From assembly GCA_965263355.1 (NCBI GenBank), contig CBDHHL010000056.1:128001-192000 (forward strand): DNA of 64,000 nucleotides. Direction: 5' to 3'. Below, piece after piece: positions 5,489-49,049 of the stretch. The notes beneath the pieces are model-generated. The model was not told where the DNA came from, did no database searches, and was given only the letters and a program-made list of their open reading frames with translations. The stretch's first letter is position 1. Each line of letters starts with the position of its first letter. The stretch is from Leptolyngbyaceae cyanobacterium (GTDB taxonomy: Bacteria > Cyanobacteriota > Cyanobacteriia > Phormidesmidales > Phormidesmidaceae). The translations under genes were made by a program, and so were the position numbers.

Positions 5489-5797
5489 CTATGATTTTAT
5501 GCTACATATTAAACTTAGCGAGGTGTAGGCGAGAAACTGAATCTTATAACGGCTGGTTAGACCAATATGTTCTCCAATGATCCTTGGTGTAAGTGGACCA
5601 TCTTCCAAAAGATTAAGCGATCGCAAATCATTGCGGTGTATGCCGAAGTGTTCGGAAATTGCATAGTCAATCGCATTGCAGGCCGCATGGATCCTTCGGC
5701 CTGCAATGATTAAGGTTTCGAGGTTTTTACTGTCATTCAAAATATTTGCCTTGACGATCAAGATTCTTTGGGCTCTACTTGTATCAAGTATGGACAA
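5489..5797 (-). pseudogene. MarR-family regulator, truncated within the wHTH
   Basis: ..GIHRNDLRSLNLLEDGPLTPRIIGEHIGLTS then unrelated sequence. Confidence 0.6.
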
Positions 5798-5856
5798 CTT
5801 GCATTAAGGAATGGGTGTCAAGATATAGCCGTCATCAATCTTGAATGGAGAAATAA

Positions 5857-6120
5857 ATGGGAATTGTTCTGTCTGGGGTGATCTGGCTCGTCGTTTTATT
5901 ACTCATGCTAGTGATCTTTCTGCCTAATGCTGTCCGAGATTCAGAGAAGATTGTTGTTAACGTCCCAGCCGAGCAAGTGTATGACAATATCCGATGGCAA
6001 GCGAGACTGATGCAATGGTCTCCATGGCCTGAAGCAACTGGCTCAACCTGTTCGGTCGAGAATACGGATGGGAGAGTTGGTGCCCGGACTATCTTTTCAA
6101 GGTTTGAAAACTTATTCTGA
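5857..6120 (+). pseudogene. SRPBCC/polyketide-cyclase family protein, 3'-truncated
   Basis: TM + IVVNVPAEQVY..WSPW..GRVGA, only 87 aa. Confidence 0.55.
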
Positions 6121-6193
6121 ATTACGAAAAGCCCTGTAATGTGCTGGTTTCTTGTTGATCGTTTTTTGATGAAGGGTTAGTGATTTGAGTGAG

Positions 6194-6277
6194 ATCTAAC
6201 AATGCCCATACACTCGATCGAGAGGTTTTCAGTGAGCATTCAAGGTCATTTACGGTGGTTAATGGTCAACGTTAGGC
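6194..6277 (+). other. attC-like recombination site
   Basis: R'' ATCTAAC (6194-6200) ... R' GTTAGGC (6271-6277), 84 bp imperfect palindrome. Confidence 0.55.
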
Positions 6278-6370
6278 AATTCATTTTGTCTGGTTTTTCA
6301 AATACCTAAGGAAACTACTTGCCTAGCGATGTACTGATAAGGTAATAATCAAGACAGATAAGGAGGCTAC

Positions 6371-7225
6371 TTGAACAGTTCACTTCGTGTATGGTTAGGC
6401 GCTAAGAAACGTCGAATGAAAAATATCGTCGGGTTGCCTCGCCAAAAAACTTCATCGCCTCCTCCACCGCCCCCAGGACATGTGATTGGTGCGCCTGACT
6501 TTGTCGGCATCGGAGCGCAAAAATCGGGGACCTCGTGGTGGTATCACGTACTAACAGCTCACCAAGGAGTTTATCACCCGTCCTGGATGGACAAATACGT
6601 CCATCCATCCTATCTAAACAAGGAACGTCACTTTTTTGATAGCTTCGCGGAACGCTCTTGGGATCCAAGCCACATTGAAGAGTATCACGCTTGGTTTCCC
6701 CGCCCTGCCGACACTATTACTGGGGAATGGACACCTCGATATCTTTGTGACTTCTGGACCCCACCACTCTTGAAGCAAGCGGCACCTGAAGCCCGAATTC
6801 TTGTCATGCTGCGAGATCCCGTCCAGCGGTTCTTCTCGGGACTTCAACACTCACAGCGTGGCAGTGAGAGATTGACACTGGATAAGTTTAACGAACACGC
6901 AGCACGTGGGCTGTACAGCCAAGGTCTTCACTACTGGTTGAATTGGTTCGACCCCGCTCAGATTCTCGTACTTCAGTACGAGCGTTGCATAGCTGACCCA
7001 ATGCCACAACTTGTCCGCACCTGTAACTTCCTCGGGTTAGATACTACATCACTTAAGGCGTGCGAGAAACGCTTCGGCCTTCGAATCAATGCAGGTCTGC
7101 CAAAGTCAGTATCGCTAAAGTCACATTTGGTCGAGCCCCTTAGAGAGTACTATCGAGCCGATATCCTCAGTTTGGTCGAGTCTTTCCCATCCATTGATCC
7201 AACTCTGTGGCTGGAATCCCGTTAA
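6371..7225 (+). CDS. Sulfotransferase (Sulfotransfer_1 type)
   Basis: PDFVGIGAQKSGTS 5'PSB loop, KE.HFF, GEWTPRY, LRDPVQRFFS 3'PB; AGGAGG before TTG. Confidence 0.85.
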   Translation: MNSSLRVWLGAKKRRMKNIVGLPRQKTSSPPPPPPGHVIGAPDFVGIGAQKSGTSWWYHVLTAHQGVYHPSWMDKYVHPSYLNKERHFFDSFAERSWDPSHIEEYHAWFPRPADTITGEWTPRYLCDFWTPPLLKQAAPEARILVMLRDPVQRFFSGLQHSQRGSERLTLDKFNEHAARGLYSQGLHYWLNWFDPAQILVLQYERCIADPMPQLVRTCNFLGLDTTSLKACEKRFGLRINAGLPKSVSLKSHLVEPLREYYRADILSLVESFPSIDPTLWLESR

Positions 7226-7372
7226 CGATGAATTAGCCCTCAAAGGAGTACTTTGTAAGTCAAACCGAGAAAATTTTCGATTATCTATCTTGGCGATGAT
7301 GATGAGTGAATGGCCTCCTCTAGAAAGTTGGTTTCAGTAGATTCCTTCTAGGAAATTAAGAGAGCTTTAGAT

Positions 7373-7933
7373 ATGAAAAAAAAATCTAAACCAAAGATAT
7401 TTAGTAAGTGCAAGTTTGTACTACTTATCCTGCTATTAATCATGGGATTGACTATACCCTACGGTCTTAAATTTTTATCGCCTCGTTTGGAGCCTTATCC
7501 AGCAATTATTTTTCCTGCTGGATCCGGAACGGTTAGACAGTCTGAGGGTAAGTTTAGATTTAGAACTATTAATATTTACTGCCTTGATTTATCGACGGAG
7601 GAGTGGATGAAACAAGACACATCTAGCTTCTTATCACCAATTCCTCGTCGGTATTTTAGCGCTATCGTAAAGAATGAATTTGGGCTAAACCCTAATTTAA
7701 AGCATACGGTAAAGTTTAGAAAAAACATTTTTCCGAGCTTTACTTATATGAACTCTAATGCTTTGGATGCAGCAAACATAGACCGTACTAAAGCGTGGCT
7801 TAGAGGTAAGCTTCTAAAACATGGGTGCAAAGATGACTCCTTGTTAATAAGAACAACACTGATGTCAGCGAATTTAAAAACTAAAGTGGTTTCTGAAATT
7901 AAGATTATGGATGAACAACTCTTTAAGTTATGA
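7373..7933 (+). CDS. Hypothetical protein with N-terminal TM, coupled to next gene
   Basis: 186-aa ORF overlapping the start of the 7930 ORF (ATGA). Confidence 0.6.
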   Translation: MKKKSKPKIFSKCKFVLLILLLIMGLTIPYGLKFLSPRLEPYPAIIFPAGSGTVRQSEGKFRFRTINIYCLDLSTEEWMKQDTSSFLSPIPRRYFSAIVKNEFGLNPNLKHTVKFRKNIFPSFTYMNSNALDAANIDRTKAWLRGKLLKHGCKDDSLLIRTTLMSANLKTKVVSEIKIMDEQLFKL

Positions 7934-9051
7934 AAAGCCCTGTTCTATTTGCTGAAAAAATCATCAAGAAGATCCTTACAAGAATTCAGAGATCAGTCCC
8001 CATCCCCGAATGGCATTCATCAATTTTCCGAATATTTCTTGGGATATACATTCTTCTTTTTTCCATTTCCGAATTTGGATGGATAAATGACGTTCCTAAA
8101 AGTTTATTTAACCCTCCTCTTATTAGCTTGTCTAGATTATTTTCTGGTTTTCCGTCTGGAATTCTATTTTATCTAAACATTCTGATTGTCTTGTTTGCAG
8201 TATTCATCACATTAGGTATTCGTTCACGAGCTTCAAGTCTTACCTTTGTCGTAATTAATATATTTGGCGATTCATTCATATATAGTTTTGGCAAAATAGA
8301 TCATGGCGGAGTCATGCTGATAGCGACTCTTGTTTGCTTCTCATTTTCAAATTGGGGAACTAAGAATGCTCTCATCCCAGATAAGTATTGCCCATATCAC
8401 AAACTCTCTAGTGTGCTACTAGCCATATTATTGGCATTTGGGATGTTTACAGCAGGATTTGAAAAGCTCATATTCTGGGTAGATTTTGACTTAAGCACTA
8501 ACGGGTTTTTAAGCTGGTTCTACCCTGGATACTTTAATTTGGGTAAGCAAGAACTTTTGGCTAATTTAGTCTTCTATCTTCCTACACCATTTCTAGAGAT
8601 ACTTGATTATTCCGCTGTCATATTTGAACTAGCACCCTTTTTATGCTTGATAGCTGGTGCCCGCTTTTGGAAGTCTTGGCTCTTACTAGCTTGTGTATTT
8701 CATCTAGCGAACGCATGTCTCTTAAATATTACGTTTCTTAACCACCTTCCAATATATTGTGCTTTCTTTCTGTATCCAACGCTAGATCGAGCAAAGCTTG
8801 AGAAGACTATGCAAATGAAGAGGCTGATAAGGTTTACTTATATTTTAGCTATTTTATTAGGTGCCATGCATATTGCTCTTCGGCTTAGGGGGGATGGTGT
8901 TGCCTCTCTTTTAATATCTGCCGATGGTATCTCAAAACTTTGGTTCTCTTTAATCCTTTGGCCTGGAGCAATTATTCTAGGTTTTCTTGGCTTATTTTCT
9001 CACCACAGAAAACCTTTTAACCTCTTCAACTTGAACCATGAGAAATCATGA
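7930..9051 (+). CDS. Multi-TM membrane protein, HTTM-like
   Basis: Many hydrophobic segments, SFGKIDH, AG.EK, FELAPF, FHL motifs. Confidence 0.55.
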   Translation: MKSPVLFAEKIIKKILTRIQRSVPIPEWHSSIFRIFLGIYILLFSISEFGWINDVPKSLFNPPLISLSRLFSGFPSGILFYLNILIVLFAVFITLGIRSRASSLTFVVINIFGDSFIYSFGKIDHGGVMLIATLVCFSFSNWGTKNALIPDKYCPYHKLSSVLLAILLAFGMFTAGFEKLIFWVDFDLSTNGFLSWFYPGYFNLGKQELLANLVFYLPTPFLEILDYSAVIFELAPFLCLIAGARFWKSWLLLACVFHLANACLLNITFLNHLPIYCAFFLYPTLDRAKLEKTMQMKRLIRFTYILAILLGAMHIALRLRGDGVASLLISADGISKLWFSLILWPGAIILGFLGLFSHHRKPFNLFNLNHEKS

Positions 9052-9331
9052 ATGTTGTCTAACATAGTCCCTGAGGCGGACGAGGTCAATAGCAAAGGCT
9101 AAACTTCTTTTTCTAGTTAAGCTTGAGTCTGTATTCAGACATGCAGGATTAACCTGATACTCAGTTGTTCAGGGAGGAGATTGTTCTCTCTCAGAGAGGG
9201 CTGCTTTGCTGTATGACCGTGAATACGGGTTAGCTGTTCATCGGATATTGCTCCAAGTGATTACATCGAGTGCTCGATCTTGTTGTTGTAGTTGTAGTAG
9301 TTGTTGTTATCTGCCTTTAAAGTATTACTTG

Positions 9332-10675
9332 TTATTTTTGTGATTGTTGTTTAGGTTGTTGTTGAACGCCCAATAACTTTGCTAGTGGGGACTTTTTGCG
9401 TCTCAGTACAGCTATGTATTTTTCTTCATCATAAGGGACACCATCTTGCCAACAGCGCCAGAGAATTCTTCCCCACTTATAGGCCAAGGCACGAATCGCT
9501 TTAGGATGACTTTTACCTGATTGCTTCTGCTGTAGATAAAAGGCTTGGGACCAAGTCGAATGTCGACGCGCTTGATCGACCCATTCAACAAAGGTTTGTC
9601 TGAGGAAAATTGGACATGACCAACGCCAATGAACCCAGCACTTTTTGCCGCTTTCCTCCTTGACAGGGGCAATACCGATATAGCTCATAAAGGCCTGAGC
9701 CGACGTAAAGCGCGTGCGGTCTTCGCCAAAGGCGACTAACAGTCGTGGCGCTAGATGCGGTCCGGCTCCCGGTAAGGCCTGAAATAACTCGGCATCTGGC
9801 AATGACTCAAACAGGTTAGCAATCTGTTGGTTAAATTCAGTTAATTGTTGTAAAACAACCTTAAGCAGAGTGATTAGACTTAAAGTCAGTGTTTTAGCCG
9901 GTATCACAATGGCGTCATCCTCAGTCAGCGGTGGGCCTGCGTCTTTGATTTGCTGAATCCTACGCTGAATCGTCGTCCGTCGAACAACATGATGGCGATG
10001 GAAAAACTGAGTGATTGTTTCAGGGGTTGCTGCTTGGGCCGCTTTGACATCGTCGAACTGCTCAATAAACTCACAAAAGACCTGCGTATCTTTATCTCTA
10101 AACCAATCAAGAACTTGAGGAAAATAGGATTTGAGTGATGCGGTGATACGGTTAGTCAAACGCACCTTTTCGCCCACTAACATCCGACGCGATTCTACCC
10201 ATTGTCTGAGGGCACGATGTTCAGGGCACCCTGCCACCCAAGCCTTTAGTTTATTGCCATGCTTACGCATTAACTCCACCAGAATACGGGCATCTACGGG
10301 GTCGGATTTGGCTCGTGATGGCTGAAACGCTTTTCGATAGTTGGCCACCGTTCTGGGATTAATGGGAAACAGCACTAAATTGTCATACTGACACAGCGCA
10401 TAGAGTAGAGGCCCTCGCTGTTGTTCAAGAGCAACCGCAATTTTGCCAGGACCATACCGTTCTCGGAGTTGTGTGACCCAATCCAGAATAGCTTGAGGAT
10501 GGTTTTGAATAATACTATTTTTCCAGGTGTCTGTTGCACAGTCATATACCGCAATGTCATTTTTTCGGTCAGCCCAGTCAATGCCCACATAGGCCACATA
10601 GTCAATCGACTCGATGGCCTTAGGCATAGGTGTTTCTGAAGCTGAGTCTGTAGTTATGGTTGGGGCTATTGTCAT
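9332..10675 (-). CDS. IS110-family recombinase/transposase
   Basis: RuvC-like DEDD (GIDWAD, ALEQ, KSDPVDA) and Tnp domain PGAG..LA, GIAPV..ESG. Confidence 0.93.
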   Translation of the reverse strand: MTIAPTITTDSASETPMPKAIESIDYVAYVGIDWADRKNDIAVYDCATDTWKNSIIQNHPQAILDWVTQLRERYGPGKIAVALEQQRGPLLYALCQYDNLVLFPINPRTVANYRKAFQPSRAKSDPVDARILVELMRKHGNKLKAWVAGCPEHRALRQWVESRRMLVGEKVRLTNRITASLKSYFPQVLDWFRDKDTQVFCEFIEQFDDVKAAQAATPETITQFFHRHHVVRRTTIQRRIQQIKDAGPPLTEDDAIVIPAKTLTLSLITLLKVVLQQLTEFNQQIANLFESLPDAELFQALPGAGPHLAPRLLVAFGEDRTRFTSAQAFMSYIGIAPVKEESGKKCWVHWRWSCPIFLRQTFVEWVDQARRHSTWSQAFYLQQKQSGKSHPKAIRALAYKWGRILWRCWQDGVPYDEEKYIAVLRRKKSPLAKLLGVQQQPKQQSQK

Positions 10676-10706
10676 TGTGTTAGATTAGAAGCCAATTTGT
10701 TTAACA

Positions 10707-10989
10707 GGGGTACGTCTGCTACCTACTTGAAGAGCGAAAAGATTATGGAAGCGATTGAATCCCCTTCCCTGAGAGTTCGTTTAAGACAAGTAGGACAAAG
10801 ACCAGAGGCGAGGCGATATGTTAGTAGTCATTGACTGACGTGCGTTGGATAGTCGTCCTCTAGTCCTAGCAGACAAGCCCCATTTTTTGACTTTACGCTT
10901 TTCTTGACAGTTGGGATGAGTGAAGATGAGGAGCGATGCGATATGTTAGTAGACATGCAGGCTGTCGCTCGTTGCATAGTCGTCTCCTC
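10707..10989 (-). ncRNA. Predicted IS110 bridge RNA (two target-binding loops + one donor-binding loop)
   Basis: Hairpins 10928-10989, 10801-10864, 10722-10794; closing helix 10714-10721/10867-10874; loop segments match the reconstructed target and donor. Confidence 0.75.
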
Positions 10990-11281
10990 GGTTCGTCCCC
11001 CCATAACCCGTTGGGGCGGACGTATAAAAGGCGTCGCAAGTACTGTACAAGATATCGGTCGCCGCTCAACTTAGCCGTTAGTTGGGTATGGGTCTGGGTA
11101 TGGAGTTACGAATCGTAATGAGATTAGCTTCTGGGTTAGAGATCGTTGATTTTCATCTTTGACGCTGAGGGTGGATAACATAGCCTCTGAGGCAGATGAG
11201 GGCAATTTCACACTGCTTGACAGCTTCCTTTCCCGTGATTACATTGTAATTACATTTTCCTGTTCGCAAGTATCTAATTCT

Positions 11282-11542
11282 ATGGGCACAATTGTCAGAA
11301 CTCGGATCGTTAAAATTGGCAATTCTCAAGGCATTCGTATTCCTAAGCTCCTCTTGGAGCAAAGTGGTATTCATGAAGACGTTGAGATTGAAGTACAGGG
11401 TGATTGTCTGACTATTCGCAAAGCACAATGTTGGCGTGCCGGATGGGATGAGGCCTTTGCTGCAATGGCTGAGAATCAAGATGATGTACTTCTAGATGAC
11501 GTCAACACTACTGACTGGGATCAATCTGACTGGGAATGGTAG
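11282..11542 (+). CDS. AbrB/MazE-family antitoxin
   Basis: RTRIVKIGNSQGIRIPK; start reassigned to ATG 11282. Confidence 0.88.
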   Translation: MGTIVRTRIVKIGNSQGIRIPKLLLEQSGIHEDVEIEVQGDCLTIRKAQCWRAGWDEAFAAMAENQDDVLLDDVNTTDWDQSDWEW

Positions 11543-11859
11543 TCAAGCGTTTCGATGTTTTTCTGGTCAACCTAGACCCCACTGTTGGCAGTGAAATTCA
11601 GAAAACACGCCCCTGTGTTGTTATATCACCGGATGAGATGAACCGTTATATCGCTAAGGTTATCATTGCTCCAATGACTACGAAAGGTAAGCAATATCCC
11701 ACTCGTGTTGTCTGTCAATTTCAGGGCAAAAATGGGCAAATCGTTTTAGACCAAATCCGCACAGTAGATAAAAATAGATTGGACAAAAAGATTGGCCAAA
11801 TCAGTCAAGATGAGCAAAAAATGCTTCTTGCGACCTTAGCTGAGATGTTTGCTGAATAG
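11536..11859 (+). CDS. PemK/MazF-family toxin
   Basis: LVNLDPTVGSEIQKTRPCVVIS, DQIRTVDK. Confidence 0.92.
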   Translation: MVVKRFDVFLVNLDPTVGSEIQKTRPCVVISPDEMNRYIAKVIIAPMTTKGKQYPTRVVCQFQGKNGQIVLDQIRTVDKNRLDKKIGQISQDEQKMLLATLAEMFAE

Positions 11860-11862
11860 GTT

Positions 11863-11939
11863 TCCTAATAAGGGCTTGCAACGGAACGGAGATATAAATT
11901 CAGAGAAGTAGGATGCGCGCTGCTCACAGCAAGCTATGA
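11863..11939 (+). other. Degenerate attC-like site
   Basis: TCCTAAT AAGGGCTTGCAACGG ... GCTATGA right after the toxin stop; both R boxes mismatched. Confidence 0.35.
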
Positions 11940-12033
11940 CAATATTTAACCTCTTATTTTTCTGAGATTCAGCTGTTTTTTTACAATTTTATAACTCACA
12001 ATTTTAAAGAAAAAGATGTGAGAATTATCCCTT

Positions 12034-13698
12034 ATGCTGAGTCCATTCCATTCTCGCCTGGCTAGTCTGTCTGATCGTGTTTATTCCTGGTTGGGAATGC
12101 GATCGCACTCCTGGTTAGGGATTACCCTGGGACTGTGGCTGATCCTAACCTGGGCACTTCCTGCCTCAGCCCTTACGGTACAAGATATTCCCAGCCCACG
12201 AGCACACGGTGGCTGGGTCAGCGATACAGCGGACCAAATTTCGCCCCCCATGGAGCGGCGACTCAATGGCCTGATCACCTTTTTGGAAGCGAAAACCACC
12301 TCAGAAATGGCGGTGGTAACAATTTCTGACACACCCCCAGACATCTCCCCAAAAGACTTTGCCACAGAATTATTCAATACCTGGGGAGTAGGAAAAGTAA
12401 AGAAAAATAATGGCATGCTAATGCTGTTGTCGATGAGCGATCGCCGTATCGAGATCGAGCTTGGACGGGGCATGGAAGATGTGCTACCGAACGATTACCT
12501 TGCCAGCCTGATCCAAGATACCCTGCGTCCATTGCTCCAGAGTAGGGATGTGGATCAGGCATTGTGGGCGGGGGTAGGGGCAATCGTCGCCGACCTCACA
12601 GGCATTGACCCCAATGCCCCAACAGTTTTGCCCTGGGCACCTACCAGCTACACAATCTTTCTAGTTCTGGGCATCCCCTGCCTAGTGGGCAGTATCCTCC
12701 GCCTCCGCTGGCAGTATCAGCAACTTGCTCCGCTTCCTCCCACAGGCAGCGAGCCATTCTCTGGGTCCCTAAAGCTTTCGGAAATCGATTTTGATCGCCT
12801 GGTCCAAACAACCTCCCATTGTCCCAAACGCCCCTTCTTGCCGCTGCTGCTCCTTGTCTGTAGTTTCCCTCTGATAGCCCCGGCACTGACCTTCTGGGTT
12901 ACCTCCCTCTGGGGTGCCCCTTTCGATACCCGCACAGACCTCTTCCTTGACTTGATGGTGATTCCAGCCAGTGCCTACGGATTGCTCCTAACGCTCTATC
13001 TAGACCCCTGGCTGCACCCTGTTCCTGGCAACCGTCCCTTCAACCTGTTGGAATTTTTGGACAGCATTGACAGCAGCCAGCAAACGACCTGGCAAGATCG
13101 CATTGTAAAATGGGCCATCAAGCTTTTAATACTCAATTACTTCGTTCTCCTTATCGGTGGTGGGCCGTTTCTTCTGTGGCTTATCTATAAGCAGCTCTGG
13201 ATGCTGGCAACACCATTCACCCCCGCTTTACGGATTTCGGTTGCTGCCCCCCTATTCGTTGCTCTGGGAAATGTCGCGATCGCGACCTTCTACATCCAAG
13301 CAGAACGCTGGAGCAGCCGCCCTACCCCTGGCTATTGCTGCACAATCTGCCAGGGCGACATCGTCGATTTAACCAGCTATTCATCCGAACTTCGCAAGTT
13401 ACTCCCCTATCGGCCAAATACCACCTATCGGGCATGGCACTGTCCCACCTGTTATCCCACCCTCAGCCAAGACGGCATCTTCCTTTTCACCGAAGAAAAG
13501 TCTCCATCGACCCCGTCCAGCGTTTCAGCAAGGTCCCAAAGCCGTCACTCAAAGAGGTCCCAAAGCCGTCGATCAAAGCCCCGCCAGTCCAGCTCCTACA
13601 ATGACTCCAGCAACTCTGTTGGATCAATCTTATCCTCCGACAGTAGCGACTTTGGGGGGGGTAGCAGTGACGGTGGTGGCGTAGGAGATAACTGGTAA
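12034..13698 (+). CDS. TPM-domain membrane protein with C-terminal Cys pairs and Ser/Gly tail
   Basis: ELFNTWGVG..NNGML..DRRIEIELG.G; CTIC..CPTC; FGGGSSDGGGVGDNW. Confidence 0.85.
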   Translation: MLSPFHSRLASLSDRVYSWLGMRSHSWLGITLGLWLILTWALPASALTVQDIPSPRAHGGWVSDTADQISPPMERRLNGLITFLEAKTTSEMAVVTISDTPPDISPKDFATELFNTWGVGKVKKNNGMLMLLSMSDRRIEIELGRGMEDVLPNDYLASLIQDTLRPLLQSRDVDQALWAGVGAIVADLTGIDPNAPTVLPWAPTSYTIFLVLGIPCLVGSILRLRWQYQQLAPLPPTGSEPFSGSLKLSEIDFDRLVQTTSHCPKRPFLPLLLLVCSFPLIAPALTFWVTSLWGAPFDTRTDLFLDLMVIPASAYGLLLTLYLDPWLHPVPGNRPFNLLEFLDSIDSSQQTTWQDRIVKWAIKLLILNYFVLLIGGGPFLLWLIYKQLWMLATPFTPALRISVAAPLFVALGNVAIATFYIQAERWSSRPTPGYCCTICQGDIVDLTSYSSELRKLLPYRPNTTYRAWHCPTCYPTLSQDGIFLFTEEKSPSTPSSVSARSQSRHSKRSQSRRSKPRQSSSYNDSSNSVGSILSSDSSDFGGGSSDGGGVGDNW

Positions 13699-48240: not shown

Positions 48241-48591
48241 TCATGCTTCATACTGAGCCAGGATAGTTTTTACTGTGTTTAGGTCAATATCCGATTGATC
48301 CGACTTTGAATAAATTGTTACTAGAATAACATTCTCTTTTGTCTTCAAATAATAAACAACTCGATACCCTGCACTTTTACCTTTTTGAATATCGCTATTC
48401 TTTAACCGCACTTTGAACAATGTCAACTTTATCCCAGCAATCTGATCACCAGGGAGTTCACCCGTTTCAAGTTGTTGAATTAGCGGCTGCACATCACTCC
48501 GAATTCGTCGATAGTGCTTAGCCAGGGTTCTGAGGTCTTTTTGAAAACGAGATGTAAGCGCAACCTCAACCGATGGAGACTCATTCGACAT
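48241..48591 (-). CDS. RelE/HigB-family toxin
   Basis: KVRLKNSDIQKGKSAGYRVVY, LVTIYSKSDQ. Confidence 0.85.
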   Translation of the reverse strand: MSNESPSVEVALTSRFQKDLRTLAKHYRRIRSDVQPLIQQLETGELPGDQIAGIKLTLFKVRLKNSDIQKGKSAGYRVVYYLKTKENVILVTIYSKSDQSDIDLNTVKTILAQYEA

Positions 48592-48826
48592 CGATACCGT
48601 CCCACATATTTGCCACTGGGATAGTCTGGCCAGCTAAGGCTTCCTCTAATCCTTCCTGTAGCCCTGCTAAAACCACAGCATCAGGGGTATCATCAGAAGC
48701 CGGTTCATCCGCTTCCGCTATCAACACAATTACCCTCACTCGCTGGTGGGCATTCACCATCAATGGACGATCTAAAGACAACTGCCCCTGTTCATCAATC
48801 GTAGCCGTCGTTTCAATCGCTTTCAT
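48581..48826 (-). CDS. Putative antitoxin
   Basis: Small acidic ORF overlapping the toxin start; MKAIETTATIDEQGQL, GQTIPV..MWDGI. Confidence 0.7.
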   Translation of the reverse strand: MKAIETTATIDEQGQLSLDRPLMVNAHQRVRVIVLIAEADEPASDDTPDAVVLAGLQEGLEEALAGQTIPVANMWDGIDVE

Positions 48827-49049
48827 ATCAGCTTTTTACTCTAAATTCGTATTTCTCTATTATGGGCTGACTGTCAAACAGGTTAGTCATTCTTAAGCTC
48901 CAATTTTGCAGTAGTTCTCAGTGATTTCCTTGCCCGTTGCGTTGAACCCTGGCCTGGTAAATTTCATAGAATTGCAAACTGTGAAGCGAACCCCGTTAGC
49001 ATTTGCTTCGCGACGACTAAAATAAGTAGCCGATGAATTTCAAGCATCT

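Follow-up and report, generated by a model that had tools for sequence, protein, structure and literature searches.

The described system with which the present element can be compared most closely is IS621. According to the available parts of the reports on it (PMC11208160, PMC11208158, PMC13626964), IS621 encodes a two-domain DEDD and Ser enzyme and has the region for its guide RNA within the left end, with the target loop ahead of the donor loop, the left guide ahead of the right guide, handshake bases past the right guides and a -35 hexamer in the right end. The accessible text also describes the target and donor loops as separate modules (PMC11208158) and a strong preference for matched cores and contiguous pairing (PMC11208160). 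A different set of elements, the IS1111-attC group, is known to insert in an RNA-guided manner at a fixed point of attC; in the part of the source available, its guide RNA lies downstream of the transposase and its guides are in reversed order (PMC11187229). Tandem guide units have been reported, again in the portion available, for the IS110-related, RNA-guided TIGR-Tas arrays (PMC12045711). The nearest named relatives among the matches listed are ISEsa2, ISCfr13, ISCps4 and ISCps5, which are 40% identical to the transposase analyzed here and fall in a sister clade.

The cyanobacterial element lies in a window of 64,000 nt, by which we mean the whole stretch of DNA that was analyzed and to which all positions refer. 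It resembles IS621 in its enzyme, in the placement of the guide RNA region, in the order of loops and of guides and in the -35 hexamer, and the bases past its right guides are handshake-like. Unlike IS621, which has one target loop, it has two; its target is attC, its target and donor cores differ, and its left guide ends short of the cut, leaving a variable gap. Given the preference of IS621 for matched cores and contiguous pairing, an unmatched core and an unread gap set the element apart from this model. Like the IS1111-attC elements it enters attC at a fixed point, under guides that are here predicted from sequence, and unlike them it carries those guides upstream of the transposase. The ISEsa2 subgroup has the same donor-loop scaffold and the same CTCAGGG donor guide, but its target guides differ, its flanks are not attC, and no tandem target loop was seen in it by eye. 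In contrast to TIGR-Tas arrays, there are just two units, fused to a donor loop and serving a recombinase. The main new feature is a predicted pair of tandem target-binding loops with one donor loop in the upstream noncoding region. Within the literature covered, which comprised sources other than subscription papers and bioRxiv supplements, we found no published description of attC targeting by the IS110 group and none of tandem target loops; bioRxiv supplements might show two-loop RNAs (e.g. Fig. S12 of 10.64898/2026.10.21.760802).

The element is an IS110-group insertion sequence of 1,942 bp on the minus strand (9064-11005), which starts with TATGG and ends with GACTAT, and both ends are conserved across relatives. 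Its transposase, or bridge recombinase (447 aa; 9332-10675, minus strand), is an intact frame with the Pfam domains that define the IS110 family, DEDD_Tnp_IS110 and Transposase_20 (PF01548 and PF02371), and the catalytic positions are occupied as expected (D33, E84, D125, D128 and S342). Protein similarity to IS621 is distant, the IS621 and ISCro4 chains matching at E 7e-13 and 3.5e-12. The right end (9064-9089, minus strand), as read in the integrated form, contains the donor site and an outward -35 hexamer, TTGACC (9089-9084). By analogy with described elements, circularized ends would form a promoter in which TTGACC is separated by 17 bp from a TATTAT -10 hexamer. A candidate subterminal inverted pair is the 6-bp word GGACGA at 9078-9083 and 10993-10998; the range given for IS1111-attC elements in the available part of one report is 7-17 bp (PMC11208160). 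The noncoding DNA downstream of the transposase is 268 nt long and, judged by eye, conserved over no more than its last ~35 nt. An Rfam search of 5500-12500 gave no match.

Read depth in the likely source runs, which are not independent of the window, is 104 over the element and 16-21 over its flanks, and several different flanks were found, arguing that the element is multicopy in these runs. In the contigs of the same runs the other flanks appear as short loose ends, with no joint across the element. One 20-nt loose end at 9057, in run X3, is similar to the L'-side arm of attC and hints at insertion in the other half-site.

The 270 nt upstream of the transposase gene contain two tandem copies of one unit followed by a donor loop. 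All guides lie within 10741-10977 on the minus strand, in agreement with the initial annotation, which had placed guide-matching sequences upstream of the transposase; the second target-binding loop had been overlooked there. Predicted target-binding loop 1 (10928-10989) has its left guide at 10967-10977 (ATGCAACGAGC) and its right guide at 10941-10949 (CTAACATAT), and predicted target-binding loop 2 (10804-10861) has its left guide at 10840-10850 (ATCCAACGCAC) and its right guide at 10816-10824. The predicted donor-binding loop (10735-10780) has a left guide (10765-10773) that matches the right end of the element and a right guide (10741-10748; CCATAATC) that complements the left end preceded by an AT dinucleotide. 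Internal loops predicted to pair with target and donor are as expected of the IS110 group. The presence of two target loops in all 29 aligned elements departs from that group's rule of one per RNA.

These loop boundaries come from the alignment and consensus fold of the 29 elements. RNAalifold gives both target loops one architecture, namely an outer stem, a 13-nt strand, a 4-bp hairpin and a 15-nt strand, and in the structure that we assigned 90.8% of cells pair vs 38-46% in slid controls. Twelve of the 38 pairs change on both sides, nine of them in the outer stem of loop 2; this covariation is to be read with the caveat that related sequences can beat shuffles, and one 3-pair helix is partly misplaced. 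Invariant scaffold bases and right guides are kept in both loops across the 29 elements, and the right guide, complementary to AT-GTTAG, is identical in the two loops. The left guides of loops 1 and 2, on the other hand, differ in 40/40 two-loop elements. Guides also covary with what they would pair with: the donor guide changes together with the right end within the CTCAGAGG subclade and, by eye, the right guide does so with the flank in those one-loop subclades whose cut lies one base farther off. In most of the aligned elements, the linker between the loops (window ~10880-10905 and relatives) shares an A-rich motif around AAAGT that is conserved and may be a processing site or an internal promoter. 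A palindromic insert of ~25 nt occurs within the donor loop of two relatives (L177 and L211) and just past loop 2 of another (L093).

The DNA split by the element is an attC site, for which we use the usual box names R''-L''-L'-R'. The R'' box (GTCTAAC; 9057-9063, plus strand) begins 6 nt past the stop codon of the ORF at 7930-9051. The remainder of the site follows the element at 11006-11083 on the plus strand, with a spacer remnant at 11006-11009, L'' at 11010-11017, L' at 11064-11070 and R' at 11077-11083. The boxes are thus normally spaced and lie directly after a cassette gene, as expected of attC. A covariance model, built by aligning 40 uninterrupted paralogous palindromes from loci of relatives, finds exactly two matches in the whole 64-kb window: the split site (11001-11083; 46.5 bits, E 8e-9) and an intact attC of the same small array (6194-6277, plus strand; 38.6 bits, E 6e-7). 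Between the two sites lies cassette content on the plus strand (6371-9051) consisting of a sulfotransferase gene and two ORFs without a Pfam match. A folding-based attC test had been tried and did not discriminate (34/48 junctions vs 80/241 control positions), and the covariance model was used instead; the reconstructed site, folded as DNA without constraints, failed to yield the attC hairpin.

Pfam detected no integrase gene among the 50 window ORFs scanned, so this appears to be a small array without its integrase. In a related genome (G331), repeats of this family come after a complete integron integrase (IntI above the TIGR02249 cut-off), arranged divergently as is usual, and each of the four element copies there is no more than about 15 kb away from intI or a fragment of it; IntI scored above the cut-off in 3/5 genomes tested. 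The same G331 integron array also contains a distant member of the IS110 family (L312:1489-2550), whose gene is followed by a long noncoding region. Past R' of the window site, the DNA at 11079-11158 is an inner fragment of an unrelated minus-strand gene that is intact in other cyanobacteria (the matching gene interior is present in 5/172 genomes). It is joined at GTT, which would agree with IntI integration at a secondary site. Further on, at 11176-11206 (minus strand), the right-end remnant of a second, related element is fused to an R''-like box; its donor is of the CTCAGAGG type, as in a one-loop subclade. A MazE/MazF pair lies beside the array (11159-11859), and a RelE/ParE-type toxin gene is found elsewhere in the window (48241-48896).

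The exact position of the ends depends on how the short repeats at the junctions are read. The initial annotation described a precise insertion into an attC-like palindrome with CATA on both sides, and much of this description holds: the word is present at 9063-9066 and 11002-11005, removal of the DNA between its copies gives an 88-nt GTCTAAC...GTTAGTT palindrome with arms at 11010-11019 and 11062-11070, and the covariance model matches both this site and the one at 6194-6277 that it was said to resemble. CATA is, however, probably not a duplicated core, since each end of the element has its own TAT and the C on the right lies inside the element. If CATA were instead a 4-bp core common to donor and target, the empty site would keep ATA and the circle would have one TAT. 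This arrangement would account for CATA on both sides, and a natural site with an extra TAT before GTTA does exist (L230, G331:C1:1705853-1705877; 1/31 rows), but that site is situated ~4 kb from a copy of the element and more plausibly represents a scar of excision or deletion. The reconstruction with a CATA core also gives an R''-L'' spacer of 7 nt. Among site-family pattern matches in 172 genomes, the spacer is 5 nt in 60/63, 8 nt in one and shorter in two, one of which was checked and is an element end. The 51 uninterrupted bottom-strand sites in fetched loci, a count that excludes 20 mis-anchored top-strand readings, have spacers of 5 nt (32) or 6 nt (19) with no TAT, and several interrupted sites have left junctions that recur identically, but lacking TAT, in intact sites. 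The donor guide, moreover, complements ATTATGG, and a good -10 hexamer would require both TATs. A shared CATA core is therefore very improbable in our estimation.

The spacer counts, the intact twins without TAT, the donor guide CCATAATC and the predicted spacing of TATTAT lead us to place the element at 9064-11005. Because the intact paralogous sites have 5-6-nt spacers and no extra TAT, the empty allele and circle junction proposed earlier are probably off by 3 nt. The insertion point is fixed beside R'', but the precision claimed for it is not complete: the spacer remnant of the window site is 4 nt, below all intact sites counted and equally short in 2/30 interrupted relatives, so that one T was probably lost. 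A search for an integrated end-to-end element junction in 401 genomes found none, two matches in viral contigs being due to chance, and no empty allele with the right flank was found in 172 genomes.

Relatives were collected by genome and metagenome searches, the cyanobacterial ones being 52-91% identical and the proteobacterial ones 40-50%. Of 69 cyanobacterial loci, six were missed by the left-end pattern; among the remaining 63, 40 adjoin a full match to the attC model and 23 do not; some of the latter retain a half-site or a diverged site, and others lie in DNA unrelated to attC. It follows that attC is the main but not the sole target, and the occurrence of copies in unrelated sequences, which had been named as evidence against attC targeting, applies to a minority of loci. 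The proteobacterial sister loci give no attC-model match (0/31); the model is cyanobacterial, although flanks and guides also differ by eye. The insertion point within attC is constant. On the right, read in the orientation of the element, the sequence is CTCAGRG-NNN-AT and then flank, with AT in 47/48 distinct ends, and the flank begins with GTTA in 37/48. At the left junction (n=44) the dinucleotide before TATGG is TT in 27 cases, GT in 12, AT in four and GC in one, its final T being present in 43/44. The 2-nt cores of donor (AT in 47/48) and target are therefore unequal. In one relative (L036), the right end, downstream of the transposase, is joined to the inverted DNA of the element's own target loop at the right-guide sequence, an apparent case of self-targeting. 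Three copies in another genome (L198, L308 and L314 of G021) have a common non-attC left flank of ~95 nt and are perhaps part of a larger composite unit.

The two target loops match different versions of attC. For the 37 two-loop elements with flanks, loop 1 is the better fit in 21 and loop 2 in 15, and the best-of-two guide score is 6.64 vs 5.87 when targets are shuffled. When loop 1 is kept and loop 2 is shuffled, the score falls to 6.36 (p about 0.002), and the contribution of loop 2 persists when each guide pair is represented by a single element (n=21; p 0.005-0.007). These permutation tests ignore relatedness and the attC pool of each host, and the guide score and its offsets were devised after the data had been seen. 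At a score of at least 6.5 of 8, loop 1 explains 16 sites, loop 2 explains 13 and either explains 27/37, with the other 10/37 matching neither guide; each target loop would thus explain insertion sites left unexplained by the other. The window site fits loop 2 better (6.5 vs 5.5 for loop 1), and a nearly identical copy, in run X6, occupies a site better matched by loop 1, so one element uses both site classes; the same is seen when L215 is compared with L176 and L197/L175. Over the 32 best-fitting pairs, the match rate is 0.91-1.0 at guide positions 2-8, partly as a result of selection, and about 0.3 at positions 10-11; most offsets are 1 or 2. This argues that the spacer beside the cut is not read. 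One element therefore likely seeks two target variants.

An intact IS110-group element lies between R'' and the spacer, and we think it likely that its predicted bridge RNA, with two target loops, gives it two attC specificities. The mechanism we propose builds on the ends, the insertion point, the two loop copies, the guide-target matches and the single origin of the duplication (see below), and is modeled in its steps on IS621. The element would circularize, and the abutted ends would complete the promoter from which the RNA is made. The donor loop would then engage the joined ends, and a target loop the R''/L'' half of attC. Since the loops of IS621 are separate modules, a second target loop could plausibly serve as an alternative one. 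In either target loop, the constant right guide would pair with the GTTAG core and the variable left guide with 7-8 nt of L'', and the 1-4 spacer bases left unread would allow both 5- and 6-nt spacers to fit. Top strands would be exchanged beside a 2-nt core that need not match (NT in the target, AT in the donor), and the product would be repaired on the top strand. Left junctions keep the two bases of the target and right junctions those of the donor, as would be expected if exchange of the top strand is followed by its use as the template for repair. The split attC would no longer fold for IntI, and the upstream cassette would be locked in place. On balance we lean towards a broader reading, namely a natural multi-guide bridge RNA with two independently programmed target loops and one donor loop, in which divergence has been selected to cover variable targets, the left guide spans a gap and core identity is not needed.

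In an alternative reading, one of the two loops is a decaying duplicate and the other alone is functional, the spread of targets being due to recognition of the GTTAG core that is loose or satisfied by a half match. Loop 2 alone is weakly above shuffled targets (5.42 vs 5.18, p 0.03), insertions outside attC are common, and half-match insertion by IS621 is described in the available part of a recent report (10.64898/2026.08.31.748434), all of which would fit such decay. It is nonetheless unlikely, because scaffold bases and right guides remain invariant in both loops of the 29 elements, the stem of loop 2 has undergone compensatory changes, loop 2 improves the fit beyond what loop 1 achieves, and the left guides of the two loops are never identical. 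We regard as somewhat less probable still a requirement for the attC hairpin or cruciform, by which the element would, like IntI, attack the bottom strand in its folded form, with the guides limited to fine-tuning. The top strand exchanged by the element always corresponds to the bottom strand of attC, and a stem-loop gate at the target of ISPpu10 is mentioned in the part available of another report (10.64898/2026.03.19.712850). Against such a requirement, a guide match is retained by many copies whose target is a half-site or is not attC (L215 is one), and the proteobacterial sisters, at their non-attC targets, show by eye the same asymmetry of junctions.

The phylogeny bears on the suggestion in the initial annotation that this is a cyanobacterial lineage of attC-targeting, IS110-type elements independent of the IS1111-attC elements. 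A quick IQ-TREE run of 67 proteins, with SH-aLRT supports and no bootstrap, from which six loci with broken frames were left out, groups the 37 cyanobacterial attC-type rows in one clade (SH-aLRT 97), sister to a proteobacterial clade that contains ISEsa2. The transposase does not group with the IS1111 references: ISEc11 and IS5708, which stand in for the IS1111 side in a tree that includes no IS1111-attC member such as ISKpn4, fall far outside the cyanobacterial clade. In the portion available of the supplement of Durrant (PMC11208160), ISKpn4, ISPa21, ISPa25 and ISPst6 clustered apart from ISEsa2; plasmid searches for ISKpn4 and ISPa21 proteins found none among the 180 matches listed. With a clade that is sister to ISEsa2 and far from the IS1111-group references, attC targeting looks convergent, and the junctions of relatives, the linkage of the repeats to IntI and the tree together support the suggested independence. 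By eye, the noncoding region of ISKpn4 carries TAACAA and TTGAACG, which would fit the same R''/L'' half. The 22 two-loop rows also form one clade (SH-aLRT 97), nested among one-loop attC rows, a topology in which the two-loop form appears to have arisen once, from one-loop ancestors.

Current engineering of bridge recombinases for genome writing follows a model with one target loop and matched cores. A wild clade with a target loop duplicated once, differing guides and unmatched cores allows multiplexing and a relaxed core requirement to be tested directly. If the interpretation is true, it would provide a ready-made multiplexed, core-relaxed recombinase together with a second, convergent parasite of integrons. 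For integron biology, RNA-guided elements from both branches of the IS110 family have found attC, and their insertion is a possible route by which cyanobacterial cassette arrays become frozen.
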